Below are positions 1,664-56,714 of a DNA stretch of 56,714 bases, piece by piece. The first letter of the stretch is position 1. Every line of letters starts with the position of its first letter. The DNA lies in NCBI GenBank assembly GCA_052034405.1, contig JBPOIO010000016.1, positions 1-56,714 on the forward strand, given 5' to 3'. The translations under genes and the position numbers were made by a program. A model generated the notes under the pieces. That model made no database searches, had not been told where the DNA came from, and was given only the letters and a program-made list of their open reading frames with translations. The stretch comes from Candidatus Magasanikiibacteriota bacterium. GTDB taxonomy: Bacteria; Patescibacteriota; Patescibacteriia; Magasanikbacterales; UBA922.

Positions 1664-3541
1664 ATGAATTCACTTGTCCGTAATTTTGTACTTGTTATTG
1701 TTTCGCTGCTTTTGATCGCTGGAATCATGAGTACTGTGGTAAATAAAGATGCCAAACCCCAACAAGTAGGGGTGAGTGTGCTTATTGAAGCCATGGAAAA
1801 AGACCAGATCAAGACTATCGATGTCATGGGGGACACGCTTTTGGCTTACCCAAAAGACGAAAAGGCAAAGACTCTTGAAGTAAAAAAAGAGTTTGGGCAA
1901 TCTTTTTCTGAGCTCATGAAGGATTATTCGGTAAATCCAGAAAAACTCAAAGGAGTGGACGTAAAAATTAAACAAGAAACTGGTTGGCGTGCGGTACTGG
2001 GTGCTCTTGCCCCATATATTATTCCACTTGTAATTGTGGGTGCTTTGATTTTCTTTTTGACTCGTCAGGTTCAGGGTGCAAATAACAAAGCCATGGGTTT
2101 TGGTCAAAGTAATGCCAAACAAGTAAAACCAGACGATCAGAATAAAAAAACATTTGCAGATGTTGCCGGTGCCAAAGAAGCAAAATCAGAACTTGAAGAA
2201 ATCGTAGACTTTTTGAAAAATCCAAAAAAATTCGCAGATATGGGAGCAAAGATTCCAAAGGGAGTTTTGCTCATGGGATCTCCTGGTACAGGAAAAACAC
2301 TGCTTGCCAAAGCAGTTGCGGGTGAAGCCAACGTTCCATTTTTTCATATTAGTGGATCTGAGTTTGTAGAAATGTTTGTGGGTGTTGGTGCTAGTCGTGT
2401 GCGTGATCTTTTTCAAAAGGCCAAAAAATCTGCACCTGCTATTATCTTTATTGACGAAATTGATGCGGTAGGACGAAAACGTGGTGCCGGACTTGGTGGA
2501 AGTCATGATGAACGTGAACAAACATTGAACCAAATTCTCGTCGAGATGGACGGATTTGATCCACATATTGGTGTGATTGTTATTGCGGCAACCAATCGTC
2601 CTGATGTGCTTGATCAGGCATTGCTTCGCCCAGGTCGTTTTGACCGACGTGTCGTGATTGATATGCCAGATATTGCGGATCGTGAAGAAATTCTCAAGGT
2701 TCATGCCGTAGGAAAACCATTATCAAGTGATGTAAATCTTCATACTCTTGCCGAACGTACTCCTGGATTCTCCGGAGCTGATCTTGGAAATCTTCTCAAC
2801 GAAGCAGCAATTTTGGCCGTTCGAAAAGGCAAAAAAGAAGTGAATGAGGTTGATGTTCGTGAAAGTATTGATAAAGTAATTTTGGGACCAGAAAAACGTT
2901 CTCGTGTGATGAGTGAACATGACAAAAAAATGACAGCCTACCACGAAGCTGGACATGCTATTGTTGGACATTTTCTCTCACACTGTGATCCTGTTCGCAA
3001 GATCTCTATTATTGGTCGTGGTATGGCGGGTGGTTACACACTGTCTATGCCAGTCTCGGATCAACATTATCAGACCATATTGCACTTCAAAGACGATATG
3101 GCTATGATGATGGGTGGTTATGTTGCAGAGCGTATGATCTATGGTGATGAAAACCTTTCTACAGGGCCATCAAGTGACCTCAAAAAAGCAACGCAGCTTG
3201 CAACAGCTATGGTGACTCGTTATGGTATGAGTGACAAGATGGGGCCTCGTGTCTTTGCACCAAACGAAGAAATGATTTTTCTTGCACAAGAAATTCATGA
3301 CAAGAAAAACTATAGTGAAAAAACAGCCCAAATGATTGACGAAGAGGTGAGTCGCTTGCTCGAAGAAGCAAAGGCTCTCGCTGTAAAGGTTTTGACAGAA
3401 AAACGCCCTATCATGGAAAAATTGGTTAGCTCTCTGATGGAAAAAGAAACTATTGAACAAGAAGAATTTGTGGCGATTGTTGGAGAAAAAGTAAAGAAGG
3501 TTGATGTAAGAAATCCAGAAGGTGTCGTAGTCGATGCCTAA
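1664..3541 (+). CDS. ftsH: ATP-dependent zinc metalloprotease FtsH
   Basis: N-terminal TM helices, Walker A GSPGTGKT, Walker B IIFIDEID, second region of homology, zinc motif HEAGHAI. The ORF-track start at 1619 lies inside the promoter, so the ATG at 1664 (MNSLVRNF) is preferred. Confidence 0.95.
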
Positions 3542-54120: not shown

Positions 54121-54969
54121 CTATAGCACAGCATCGAGTGGGCTGACAATACTGGTATTTTTGATCGTCACATGGGTATAGAGAAGGGTGGTTTCGATTT
54201 TGGTATGTCCCAAGAGCTCCTGTATATAGCGGATATCAGTGCCATTTTCGAGCAGGTGCGTGGCAAAAGAATGGCGCAGGGTATGCGGGTGAACATGTTT
54301 GTGAATATTTGCTTTGTACGCAGCATGACTTACTATTTTTTGAATCGTATGCGTCGTAAGAGCTTTGCTCGTTCCTTCTCGCGTGAAGATAAAATCACTT
54401 GGTTGTTTCAAAAGGCTTTGTTTTTGAAAAATTGATTTGAGTGTGACGGGAAAAAGTGTGTAGCGATCTTTTTTGCCTTTTCCTTTGACAATATGTATAA
54501 GCCCGCGGGCAATATCTATATCACGCATTTTGAGATTGACGAGTTCACTCACACGTAAACCTGCACCATAGAGAAGCGAAATAATAGTGTGGTGCTTGGG
54601 ATTGGTTGTAGCGCTGATGAGTCGTTTGACTTCGTCTTTGGAAAGGACTGTGGGGAGCGTTTTTTCTCTTTTTGACCTCGGGATATGAACAAAAAATTTG
54701 CGCCGGAGAATTTTTTGAAAGTAAAATTTGAGGGCGCTATAAGCAGTATTGATGGTTGAGGCTGAACGATTTTTTGCTTGGAGAGTGGAAAGGTAATCTC
54801 GGATATGTACTTCAAGGATAGACGTTGGAGTGACACTTGCCAGTTTGAGACATTCCTGGATATAATAGGTATAGCTATCAATGGTGTGAGGACTAAAGTT
54901 TTTGAGCGTCATTTCTTGACGCAAAAGCAACATTGGGTCGCGACTGGGGCGATAGTGAGGTGAATCCAT
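54121..54969 (-). CDS. tyrosine site-specific recombinase (Xer/IntI-like, short form)
   Basis: 282 aa. N-terminal SAM-like domain (LKNFSPHTIDSYTYYIQ), catalytic R (GAGLRVSE), KGKGKKDR, HTLRHSFATHLL, LLGHTKIETTLLYTHV, and a C-terminal SPLDA as in integron integrases. Confidence 0.9.
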   Translation of the reverse strand: MDSPHYRPSRDPMLLLRQEMTLKNFSPHTIDSYTYYIQECLKLASVTPTSILEVHIRDYLSTLQAKNRSASTINTAYSALKFYFQKILRRKFFVHIPRSKREKTLPTVLSKDEVKRLISATTNPKHHTIISLLYGAGLRVSELVNLKMRDIDIARGLIHIVKGKGKKDRYTLFPVTLKSIFQKQSLLKQPSDFIFTREGTSKALTTHTIQKIVSHAAYKANIHKHVHPHTLRHSFATHLLENGTDIRYIQELLGHTKIETTLLYTHVTIKNTSIVSPLDAVL

Positions 54970-55062
54970 AGGATAGGGTGGTTACACATTAAGTACTTCT
55001 ATAGTAACAAAAACTTCCTCAAATAAAGCTAAAGAAATAATAAAGTTTTTCTAAAGTCGCAT

Positions 55063-55079
55063 ATAAGGAGTTATCGGAA
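55063..55079 (+). other. candidate attI-like junction (recombinase-proximal boundary of unit 1)
   Basis: ataagga|GTTATCGGAA. GTTATCGGAA (55070-55079) is the exact reverse complement of TTCCGATAAC (55428-55437) at the other end of unit 1. Confidence 0.35.
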
Positions 55080-55100
55080 ATATTTTTTATAAAATAAATT

Positions 55101-55436
55101 ATGGCTACGACATCATTATCAGGTTTGGTAGCAACTCAACCAGGATGGTCACATCAACTGCATGTAGATATAATTGCAATCGGTATAATCGCAGGTGCTT
55201 TTTGTATATTATTACTGATTAAAAAGAAAAAAATAATATCAAAAGTAATTTGGAAATTTCTTTTTTGGTTTTGTTTATTTATTTTTTTATTTTATTCTAT
55301 AAATATATCTGATTCTCCTGGTTCAAAACAATGTCCATTCTTCAATGGAGTATGTTTTGACGTAAAGTTACTGCCTGACAGCATTTTACCCCCTATTTTA
55401 TTTTTACCTTCTGGAGTTTTAAATTACTTCCGATAA
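55101..55436 (+). CDS. cassette-like unit 1 ORF: small membrane protein
   Basis: 111 aa with two hydrophobic segments. Its stop codon lies inside the terminal ...TTCCGATAAC. Confidence 0.45.
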   Translation: MATTSLSGLVATQPGWSHQLHVDIIAIGIIAGAFCILLLIKKKKIISKVIWKFLFWFCLFIFLFYSINISDSPGSKQCPFFNGVCFDVKLLPDSILPPILFLPSGVLNYFR

Positions 55437-55502
55437 CACTGCTTATCCAAAATGCTTTTTCGCTTAGCTCAAAGCACTTCGGATCAAGCAGAAACGTTGT
55501 GC
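55431..55502 (+). other. attC-like folded junction site 1 (72 nt)
   Basis: cgATAAC-ac-TGCTTATCC...GGAT(c)AAGCA-gaaac-GTTGTgc. The 9-bp stem has one bulged C. An inner stem GCTTT/AAAGC (55454-55458/55471-55475) is capped by ttCGCTTAGCTc. Confidence 0.5.
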
Positions 55503-55566
55503 GAAATAATGAAAAGTTTTATAATTTCTTTCAGAAATTAATTTGGGGCTATTTTTTAAATTTTTA
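55496..55566. repeat. left composite inverted repeat of unit 2
   Basis: Outer arm 55496-55521 (gttgtgcgaaataatgaaaagtttta), local palindrome 55522-55540, inner arm 55541-55566 (atttggggctattttttaaattttta). Confidence 0.9.
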
Positions 55567-55577
55567 ATTCTAAAATT

Positions 55578-56504
55578 ATGTTTCAAGGTGTAAAAAACGG
55601 GTGGCAATTAATAAAAGAGTCAGTCAGAGTATTTAATCGTCATCCAAAATTCATCATTCCGCTATTGGTTACTTGGCTTGTTTATGCGCCGATTATCTTA
55701 TATTTGAAATACTGGTTTAATTGGGATGCATATACTGACTCTCAAGTTTTTCTAATTGTATTCGGAATAATTTTTGTTTTTGCCTTTTTGCTTTCATTTT
55801 CTTGCTCTATGTTGCTGGAATTAATCCAACAATTAGAGTCTGGAAAACAAATGAATATCGCAAGTGCGTTCGGACACACATTATCGCACAATACGATAAA
55901 AATATTACCAGTGGTCTTTGTCTGGACAATTATTTGGTTTATCTTGCTTGTGATTCAAGCTCTTTTATCTAAAGATAAAAAAAGAGAAAAAGAGTCATTT
56001 AGTGCTGAAAATGCGGCAAAAACATTAGCTGGTTATCAAAATTTTTCATTATCAAAAGCCTTTTTTAAAGCATTAGAAAAAGGCGTACGCATGGTTGTTT
56101 TCCTAATTCTTCCTGCAATAGCTTGGGAAAATTTGAGTTTTTGGAAATCTGTAAAAAAGGGCATTGCTGTTTTCAAATCTAATCTTTCTGCATTTGTGAC
56201 AGGTTTTGTTCTTACTGGATTGGCAACAGCAATTATCTTTTTACCGCCTGCACTTTTATTTTATATTTCCGATGAAATGGAAATCATATTCCCCGAGTGG
56301 GTGTGGGTGATTACGATAATTTATATTGCATTTGGCTGGAGTTATTCGATTTACCTTGAACAAATGTTTACGGCTGAGTTGTATCTATGGAATCATAAAT
56401 GGGAAAAAGAAGTTACAAAAGCACAGGCGGAAAATAGACCGATTCCAACACTGAATGATATTCCAAGACCATCAGTTCTTGATGAGGTAAATGATCTTTT
56501 ATAA
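55578..56504 (+). CDS. cassette-like unit 2 ORF: polytopic membrane protein
   Basis: 308 aa, about 6 TM helices, with a charged loop KDKKREKESFSAENAAK. Confidence 0.55.
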   Translation: MFQGVKNGWQLIKESVRVFNRHPKFIIPLLVTWLVYAPIILYLKYWFNWDAYTDSQVFLIVFGIIFVFAFLLSFSCSMLLELIQQLESGKQMNIASAFGHTLSHNTIKILPVVFVWTIIWFILLVIQALLSKDKKREKESFSAENAAKTLAGYQNFSLSKAFFKALEKGVRMVVFLILPAIAWENLSFWKSVKKGIAVFKSNLSAFVTGFVLTGLATAIIFLPPALLFYISDEMEIIFPEWVWVITIIYIAFGWSYSIYLEQMFTAELYLWNHKWEKEVTKAQAENRPIPTLNDIPRPSVLDEVNDLL

Positions 56505-56513
56505 AAATAAGGA

Positions 56514-56583
56514 TAAAAATTTAAAAAATAGCCCCAAATATTTTGCTATCGCAAAATTAAAACTTTTCATTACATCGCACAAC
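56514..56583. repeat. right composite inverted repeat of unit 2
   Basis: Inner arm 56514-56539 is the perfect reverse complement of 55541-55566 (26/26). A local palindrome lies at 56540-56557. The outer arm 56558-56583 matches the reverse complement of 55496-55521 except for 2 substitutions. Confidence 0.9.
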
Positions 56584-56678
56584 ACGGCATATCTGGTTAC
56601 GGCTTTTATACAAAAGCCTCCACCCATATTTGCCTCCGCTACGCTACGGCAAACATCAGATATGCCGAAACGTTGGTC
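56577..56678 (+). other. attC-like folded junction site 2 (102 nt)
   Basis: gcACAAC-ac-GGCATATCTG...CAGATATGCC-gaaac-GTTGGtc with a perfect 10-bp stem. Inner hairpins GGCTTTT/AAAAGCC (56601-56618) and TTGCC/GGCAA (56630-56652), the latter capped by tcCGCTACGCTac. Confidence 0.5.
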
Positions 56679-56708
56679 AAAATGTCGCTACGCTCCATTT
56701 TGACCAAC
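56672..56708. repeat. ORF-less unit 3: 37-bp palindrome
   Basis: GTTGGTCAAAATG (56672-56684), tCGCTACGCTc (56685-56695), CATTTTGACCAAC (56696-56708). It is followed by gt-GGCG as the window ends. Confidence 0.85.
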
Positions 56709-56714
56709 GTGGCG

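Follow-up and report, generated by a model that had tools for sequence, protein, structure and literature searches.

The Candidatus Magasanikiibacteriota contig JBPOIO010000016.1 (assembly GCA_052034405.1) carries an array of gene cassettes that begins ~100 bp upstream of a tyrosine recombinase gene (54121–54969) and runs away from that gene. The contig was analyzed over its whole length of 56,714 nt (hereafter the window; its sites are numbered on the forward strand), and its end falls inside the array. We conclude that sites 1 and 2, the first two recombination sites of the array, are attC-like and belong to an integron-like platform for gene capture on the chromosome of an uncultivated, ultra-small bacterium of Magasanikbacteria type, in the candidate phyla radiation (CPR), and we put the probability of this reading at about 0.8. 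An attC-like nature had been proposed from the letters of the sequence alone (the original prediction). It is supported by arrays of co-oriented sites in relatives, by covariation, by the pairing of cassette ends, by the junction at an attI-like primary site, and by a cassette with exact boundaries that is shared with a distant array. Catalysis would fall to the 282-aa recombinase, and its substrate would be the folded, single-stranded bottom strand.

Structured sites in the window and in related arrays

Site 1 reads CCGATAAC (55430–55437)-AC-TGCTTATCC (55440–55448)...GGAT[C]AAGCA (55481–55490)-GAAAC (55491–55495)-GTTGTGCG (55496–55503), and site 2 reads CGCACAAC (56576–56583)-AC-GGCATATCTG (56586–56595)...CAGATATGCC (56657–56666)-GAAAC (56667–56671)-GTTGGTCA (56672–56679). 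Reading the sequence confirmed that both carry the predicted frame, AAC-AC on one side and GAAAC-GTTG on the other. The 9-mer GAAACGTTG has exact matches in the window only at these two sites, and the framed pattern AACAC-N40–70-GAAACGTT is expected 0.09 times per window by chance. Folded as single-stranded DNA, the bottom strand gave z-scores of −3.0 (site 1) and −5.6 (site 2), and the top strand −1.6 and −5.3. The description of the two stems as unrelated in sequence was overstated, because both have TATC as their core, and across the wider family (A)TATC hardly varies; only the outer four pairs and the innermost pair covary.

Two covariance models were used to search for further sites. Model R1 was built from 14 curated sites (13 from relatives and site 1 of the window) and contained no sequence of site 2, whereas R2, the second round, was trained with site 2 included. 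With R1, site 1 scored 61.1 bits (E = 5e-11), site 2 reached just 20.4 bits (E = 0.1), and nothing else in the window was detected. The corresponding R2 scores were 57 and 33.2 bits, the latter for a site that is in the training set. Stronger support for site 2 comes from its base-for-base conservation in a related locus, L028 (loci other than the window carry L numbers). In 169.6 kb, searched on both strands, R1 returned 32 matches and R2 36; all lie within arrays, in one orientation relative to the recombinase, and R2 found none elsewhere. R2 gave zero matches in eight unrelated control loci, which hold distant, unrelated recombinases with 27–43% identity to the query. The original prediction had staked itself on the existence of further sites with this frame, and the 36 same-frame sites come from eight sources and lie beside homologous recombinases.

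Loci L001, L005, L014–L017, L022, and L027 each have from 2 to 12 or more model-detected sites, located upstream of and divergent from the recombinase gene; those in L022 and L027 are further co-oriented sites found in the searches. The recombinases of L001, L005, L014, L015, L016, L017, and L027 are 57–77% identical to that of the window, and the layout is the same in all: small genes, most of them unannotated, form a co-oriented series that lies immediately upstream of the recombinase gene and diverges from it. L001 contains at least 12 sites that read xxxxTAAC-NN-NNNATATCY-AAMAT...GAT[C/T]ATNNN-(G/T)RAAC-GTTAxxxx (array strand), and each of its cassette starts is complementary to the box ahead of the next site. 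L001 and L005 have array-flanking genes in common and different cassettes. A strict DNA pattern scan of metagenome contigs yielded eight stretches, one of which is an array with four sites; the pattern is too narrow to estimate prevalence. A loose regular-expression finder (AAC-N2-stem...stem-N4–5-GTT) was dropped, as its hits were mostly false positives across coding DNA. A weak model match at 2046–2170 (minus strand) of L028 (19.5 bits, E = 0.011) lies outside the array, ~4.5 kb beyond the recombinase, and may be either a solitary site or spurious.

The 36 detected sites are 48–129 nt long, including 5-nt flanks. This overlaps the 57–142 nt of canonical attC sites, which are recombined in R' of the bottom strand (Bouvier, 2009; PMC2727003). 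The sites form two classes. In the short class, a C or T of L' is unpaired; the long class (including site 2) has no unpaired base and carries terminal structures of 56–85 nt. The extrahelical C described for site 1 was confirmed and has a counterpart, C or T, in most sites of the short class; it is on the L'-R' arm, opposite to the arm that bears such bases in canonical attC. Also as predicted, the internal loop is strongly asymmetric (2 versus 5 nt), and this asymmetry is kept in all sites, even a divergent one in L028. The AAC...AACGTT frame is invariant. Overall, 92.9% of pair cells are paired, and 49 cells have changed on both sides, compared with 18.1 ± 3.4 in shuffled alignments (0/500 were as high as the observed count) and no more than 14 in slid controls. 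Within the L stem, most of the covariation falls on the outer four pairs and the innermost one. The base pairing of the sites is therefore under selection, and the predicted retention of pairing by compensatory differences holds. A search of Rfam, which is without an attC family, returned no matching family.

Cassette boundaries, the attI-like site and a shared cassette

The ends of the cassettes are related in a manner that connects each site to its neighbor. The start of cassette 1, GTTATCGG (55070–55077), is the reverse complement of the CCGATAAC that opens site 1. Similarly, GTTGTGCG, the 8 nt that follow site 1, is the exact reverse complement of CGCACAAC, the 8 nt that open site 2, and the complementarity continues into an imperfect inverted repeat of 69 nt, perfect over a core of 26 nt (55496–55564/56515–56583), that flanks the 308-aa open reading frame (ORF) of cassette 2. 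Each cassette's first 8–9 nt pair with the box opening its own downstream site. When R' of one site was compared with R'' of the next, a perfect run of 9 nt was typical, and a mean of 10.7 of 14 positions matched; the two boxes of the same site match at 7.5/14 and all other pairs at 7.6/14 (n = 967), with a mean non-cognate run of ~4 nt. The exceptions are places with an intervening variant site. Thus R' and R'' are complementary across a cassette, as in the excised circle of an integron cassette, and by analogy a cassette's first bases would originate in the R' box of that cassette's own site while the cassette is circular.

Cassette 2 recurs in L028 (7920–9095), where the recombinase is 42% identical to that of the window and is flanked by murB; the copy is second in the array (L028, L029). 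The cassette is exactly 1176 bp in both genomes. Identity starts at G↓TTGT and stops at GAAACG↓TTG (the arrow marks the crossover), and the flanks outside are unrelated (14/60 and 12/27 positions matching). Within the cassette, the non-coding ends are identical at 80/81 and 167/168 positions, and the ORF is 86.6% identical. Outside the ORF only two positions differ, 55501 (G>A) and 56578 (C>T); they pair with each other in the R'/R'' stem, and the change is compensatory. Site 2 is identical in L028; the site preceding the shared cassette there, GCCTAAC-AA-AGACTATGCG...CGCATAGTTT-TAGAC-GTT, keeps the 2/5 frame and has a different core. The 1176-bp cassette is a mobile unit common to distant arrays. 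That its non-coding ends are ~99% identical and its ORF 87% suggests strong constraint on the extended stem or on a regulatory element. When the circle junction of cassette 2 was reconstructed, it folded into a single long hairpin (−40.6 kcal/mol, z = −9.5). The position of a cassette can also differ between close relatives. In L004, whose recombinase is 85% identical and whose far-side synteny is the same, the mini-cassette stands directly after attI, whereas in the window it is the third element, which is the expected result of two cassettes inserting at attI.

The attI-like site was defined by an alignment of eight loci, which is conserved through ...AAGTCG(C/G)ATAT-AGGGAG, diverges right after G↓TTA, and is cassette-specific from there on. 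In the window the site reads GTCGCATAT-AAGGAG-TTA..., and lies 100 bp upstream of the recombinase gene; G55070 and T55071 flank the crossover. The G↓TT junction was also seen in L004, L014, L015, L016, L017, L026, L027, and L028. The distance from GGATAT to GTTA is 11 nt both in attI and on the R''-L'' arm of the sites, and 15 nt on the L'-R' arm, which is 4 nt longer (3 nt of loop plus the unpaired base). Only the folded site, with the extra bases on the crossover-bearing arm, therefore reproduces the geometry of attI. A palindrome, GTTAC...GTAAC (54981–55008), lies between the start codon of the recombinase gene and attI and is kept in an alignment of close relatives; it could be an operator for that gene.

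The 5' end of the recombinase gene contains a promoter candidate that matches 11/12 consensus positions, the best score in the region. Its TATAAT is invariant in 8/8 aligned loci (with recombinases down to 57–60% identity), even where codons vary, and the TTGC is kept in 7/8. It probably acts as an outward promoter, in a position analogous to that of the integron Pc. This and the other features of the locus are collected in Table 1.

Table 1. Features of the recombinase locus and cassette array in the window
Feature	Position	Strand	Evidence
Tyrosine recombinase, 282 aa, IntI/XerA-like, 'Cand' type of candidate phyla, without the IntI-specific insertion	54121–54969	−	Pfam, NCBIfam, profile, fold
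Pc-like promoter candidate, TTGCCA-18-TATAAT, inside the 5' end of the recombinase gene, directed into the cassettes	54837–54866	+	Consensus match
attI-like primary site, AAGTCGCATAT-AAGGAG-TTATCGGAAAT, 11-6-11, dif-like	55054–55081	+	8-locus alignment
Cassette 1, 426 bp: ORF 55101–55436 (111 aa, membrane-like) and site 1	55071–55496	+	
Site 1, attC-like, short class, unpaired C at 55485	55430–55503	+	Covariance model, fold
Cassette 2, 1176 bp: ORF 55578–56504 (308-aa membrane protein) and site 2	55497–56672	+	
Site 2, attC-like, long class, bulge-free, ~60-nt variable terminal structure	56576–56679	+	Covariance model, fold, conservation
Cassette 3: mini-cassette without ORF, then truncated third site	56673–56714	+	15-bp perfect hairpin

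The mini-cassette of the window, TTGGTCAAAATG-TCGCTACGCTC-CATTTTGACCAAC (56673–56708), forms the hairpin listed in Table 1. It is followed by a third site of palindromic type, of which only the first 9 nt (AAC-GT-GGCG, 56706–56714) precede the contig end. This second, symmetric site type, AAC-GT-GGCGCGGATACCTCCGCGCC-AC-GTT, always stands 3' of a mini-cassette (in the window, in L001 at ~7035–7006, and in L014 at 9890–9762); an ordinary site appears to have been inserted into the L014 copy, splitting it. In both L004 and L014 the mini-cassette immediately follows attI; in L001 it is the sixth element, and GT-GGCGCGGATACCTCCGCGCC-AC-GTT follows it. A motif, (T)CGCTACGCT, occurs in the apical part of site 2 (56637–56645) and in the loop of the window mini-cassette (56686–56694). 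That loop is also found in the mini-cassettes of L014 (~9910–9900) and L004 (~15–5), and site 1 has CGCTTAGCT. The motif CGCTACGCT shows no overall enrichment in the window.

The recombinase, strand choice and competing explanations

The recombinase matches Pfam PF00589 and PF13495. It passes the cutoff of NCBIfam NF040815 (recomb_XerA_Arch; XerA/integron integrase) with 225.8 bits against 220, and misses that of the integron integrase model TIGR02249 (212.8 bits against 265), which it matches in two stretches. The catalytic residues R139, K164, H229, R232, H255, and Y264 are invariant in 37 homologs and align with those of XerD, XerA, and IntI4. Compared with sequences in the PDB, the protein aligns end to end with XerA, but with VchIntIA only over residues 13–175 and 206–279; 30 residues stand where VchIntIA has 72, and the ~43-residue IntI-specific insertion, the additional domain around patch III in the I2 region, is absent. 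When a profile of the family (37 members) was run against the PDB, VchIntIA (2a3v, 233 bits) ranked above XerA (216 and 210) and XerD (150), and just nine profile positions (190–198) face IntI residues 186–237. The family also conserves a C-terminal SPLD tail in common with VchIntIA. In an AlphaFold model with a predicted local distance difference test (pLDDT) score of 85, the top Foldseek match was again 2a3v (template modeling score, TM, 0.72), and only a short β-hairpin (residues 188–205) is predicted at the position of the insertion. Homologs, from Candidatus Magasanikbacteria as well as other Patescibacteria, bear the name 'site-specific tyrosine recombinase/integron integrase'. Their length (267–308 aa) and lack of the insertion are constant across 120 listed and 37 aligned homologs. 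An exact-protein look-up of the window recombinase returned no record.

The arrangement of the locus is that of canonical integrons (above all sedentary chromosomal ones, e.g., the Vibrio superintegron with its Vibrio cholerae repeats, VCRs) in most respects. These likewise have a recombinase gene divergent from co-oriented, mostly single-ORF cassettes, an attI beside the gene with crossover at G↓TT, and a promoter-like element inside the integrase gene. Their sites are imperfect palindromes of variable length with inverse AAC/GTT cores, a covarying L stem, and a variable terminal structure, and VCRs are, like the sites described here, fairly alike within a lineage. The pairing of R'' and R' within a cassette over at least 9 nt is shared as well, and canonical pairing extends to 9–11 nt (Bouvier, 2009; PMC2727003). 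Toxins and defense genes figure in the cargo of both. The host differs, being of a CPR (Patescibacteria) lineage; no description of integrons or of such arrays in CPR was found in the literature searched, the coverage of which was incomplete.

If the locus operates in this manner, a cassette would be excised as a circle, in which its first bases (TTRxxxx) would pair with the xxxxYAAC box ahead of its own hairpin and complete an R-box duplex of at least 9 bp beside the L stem. The folded bottom strand would then mimic attI, with its 3' arm GGATAT-N5-GTTA in register with the attI top strand. The recombinase would exchange a single strand at AA↓C (G↓TT on the top strand), and replication would resolve the junction, as in integrons. 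CTX phage attP(+) offers a parallel, in that a folded single strand mimics a duplex Xer-type site and one strand is exchanged, as we propose here. Consistent with use of the bottom strand, it is the more stable strand in 34/36 sites (mean −11.5 versus −9.0 kcal/mol, p = 6e-7), and with composition controlled its z-score is −3.1 versus −2.1 for the top strand and is the lower of the two in 31/36.

Two other schemes for the exchange were considered and rejected. The position of the bulge might suggest a crossover at R'' with use of the top strand. This predicts the opposite orientation of the sites relative to attI and leaves the first ORF without a hairpin; moreover, the shared cassette and the mini-cassette keep the downstream, not the upstream, hairpin. 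Invertible (shufflon-like) segments were rejected because nearly all ORFs share one orientation and the R boxes are not the same from cassette to cassette.

Several observations weigh against an integron-like platform. The recombinase is without an insertion that the literature holds necessary. Smyshlyaev et al. (2021) regard the IntI insertion as essential for integron function, and it is also called necessary for integron recombination (Messier and Roy, 2001, cited in PMC9668308; PMC8138268). IntI is defined by this specific domain, which archaeal integron integrases keep (Ghaly et al., 2022; the IntegronFinder paper) and which IntegronFinder requires. Canonical attC sites have two or three extrahelical bases on the R''-L'' arm (Bouvier, 2009; PMC2727003), with a G in L'' (bottom strand), and these direct the choice of strand. 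Here, the unpaired base is on the L'-R' arm, which is the cleaved arm if the bottom strand is used, or is missing altogether in the long class, so the known mechanism of strand choice is not simply transferable. The internal loop, at 2/5 nt, may depart from the roughly symmetric unpaired central spacer of canonical sites. The core of the sites (ATATC/GAT[C]AT) is conserved in sequence and resembles an Xer/dif arm, which means that recognition may be partly sequence-specific or double-stranded. Finally, the relatives are all metagenomic contigs, and several are broken inside the arrays. The system appears to work like an integron but departs from canonical ones in two defining features, namely the missing IntI domain and the arm on which the extrahelical base is found.

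The most credible alternative, although we regard it as unlikely, is a double-stranded system of the Xer/dif type. The recombinase would be the sole chromosome-dimer resolvase of the cell (XerA-like), the attI-like site would be a dif located beside the gene, as for XerS and XerH, and the array would consist of Xer-exploiting modules, similar to integrative mobile elements exploiting Xer (IMEX) or to pdif modules, recombining as duplex DNA at dif-like half-sites. The full-length similarity to XerA, above the NCBIfam cutoff, fits this proposal, as does the failure to find a second tyrosine recombinase in the window. The end-to-end XerA alignment and the dif-like 11-6-11 site directly upstream of the gene are also what single-recombinase systems (archaeal XerA, XerS/difSL, XerH/difH) would lead one to expect. 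The attI arms, TTAxxxxAMAT and ATATCYAAMAT, are similar to XerD and XerA arms. Proteins of this type have, in addition, been filed in a 'Cand' subgroup of Xer-related recombinases (Smyshlyaev et al., 2021).

Several features speak against this alternative. In the L'-R' half, the central region would be ~10 nt, 4 bp longer than that of attI, and in the R''-L'' half only ~3 nt separate the arms; neither is a proper 6–8 bp core. The R boxes vary between cassettes yet are complementary within them, including a compensatory change, which fits pairing rather than a fixed protein-binding arm. The outer pairs of the L stem covary, and the bottom strand folds better than the top. Nor does the locus lie at a GC-skew switch or terminus, which argues against a plain dif site: the two flanks agree in the sign of the skew in L001 (0.18/0.08), L016 (0.12/0.12), and L017 (0.04/0.21), evidence that is moderate given the short flanks. 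The recombinase differs from those of single-recombinase Xer systems in its SPLD tail and in having its best profile and fold matches to IntI, and the mobile cassette arrays with structured sites are a further difference. The pdif modules of Acinetobacter are also small gene modules bounded by Xer-type sites, but their sites are 28-bp XerC/D duplexes in alternating orientation with a central region of 6–8 bp. In contrast to CTX and pdif, the units here are single promoterless genes, not phages or plasmids, each with one hairpin site, co-oriented and stacked at one attI beside a dedicated recombinase.

It is very improbable that the hairpins serve as transcription terminators, or are generic palindromic repeats of intergenic DNA similar to repetitive extragenic palindromic (REP) sequences or miniature inverted-repeat transposable elements (MITEs), and take no part in recombination, with the recombinase adjacent by coincidence. 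They are stable, they lie between co-oriented genes, and part of the loop recurs (TCGCTACGCT), all of which would suit such elements. However, no T tract follows the sites, and a terminator scan picked none at them. The mRNA has the sequence of the top strand, and it is the opposite strand that folds better, which argues against a role in RNA. The hairpins are present only in arrays beside this recombinase family, in a single orientation and with the AAC...AACGTT frame unchanged, and neither the cross-cassette pairing nor the exact G↓TT boundaries of the shared cassette would be explained. Least credible is an ordinary canonical integron with a truncated or mis-called integrase gene, despite the NCBI name of the relatives and the best PDB match (IntI4), because the gene is intact with a complete set of catalytic residues, the length and missing insertion are constant in homologs, the TIGR02249 score is under the cutoff, and the asymmetry of the sites differs from that of canonical attC.

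Cargo of the arrays and significance

The cargo of the relatives' arrays includes Fic, NUDIX, MazG, type III restriction-modification, and caspase-HamB-like helicase genes, and is typical of chromosomal integrons. Fic-domain genes occur in the arrays of L005, L014, and L016. L027 (4943–9747) and L016 (6752–9772) contain a complete type III restriction-modification pair and a 1006-aa protein that combines a caspase with a HamB-like (Hachimoji-like) helicase.

The 308-aa membrane protein of cassette 2 belongs to no Pfam family and has only weak similarity to the NCBIfam BPSS1780 family. Homologs 55–92% identical are found in many Patescibacteria lineages, the L028/L029 copy being 92% identical, and also in metagenome-assembled genomes labelled Omnitrophota, Elusimicrobia, and Anaerolineae. 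A Nealsonbacteria homolog (L030) has no detectable sites and no recombinase nearby, so the family is not always cassette-borne.

Paralogous cassettes are present in L001 (~9420–8880, ~7000–6150, and ~5500–4530, minus strand) and L005 (~8200–6300). They share end modules of ~100 nt and have long terminal inverted repeats. Their interiors are GC-rich (the genome is 39% GC); the reverse strand of these interiors has small hydrophobic ORFs, and the cassettes have hairpin-plus-T-run elements of their own. They may be toxin-type stabilizing cassettes or cross-phylum imports.

The contigs of the window, L004, L026, L028, and L029 end in or at the edge of arrays, which fits assembly breaks driven by repeats or by strain variation. 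Because contigs end inside the arrays, array sizes are underestimated.

Integrons have been defined and searched for by the extra domain of their integrase, which is considered essential for the recognition of folded attC sites. Here, the whole architecture is found with the closest relative of IntI, by profile and by fold, that lacks this domain. The locus makes both the origin of integrons from Xer-like recombinases and the choice of strand directly testable. A gene-capture platform would also explain the frequent contig breaks at this locus in these organisms. The chances are about even that a large clade of short, Xer-sized recombinases of the candidate phyla, until now classed as housekeeping 'Xer-related' enzymes, performs true integron chemistry although it lacks the IntI-specific domain, with a folded single-stranded cassette site recombining with a duplex attI, and that cassettes move between arrays whose recombinases share only 42% identity. 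In that event, integron function either predates the acquisition of the IntI domain or has evolved a second time. Either way, CPR bacteria would hold a large pool of gene cassettes, including defense systems, that is invisible to current integron finders, and the arrays would reveal a route of gene gain in these genome-reduced symbionts.

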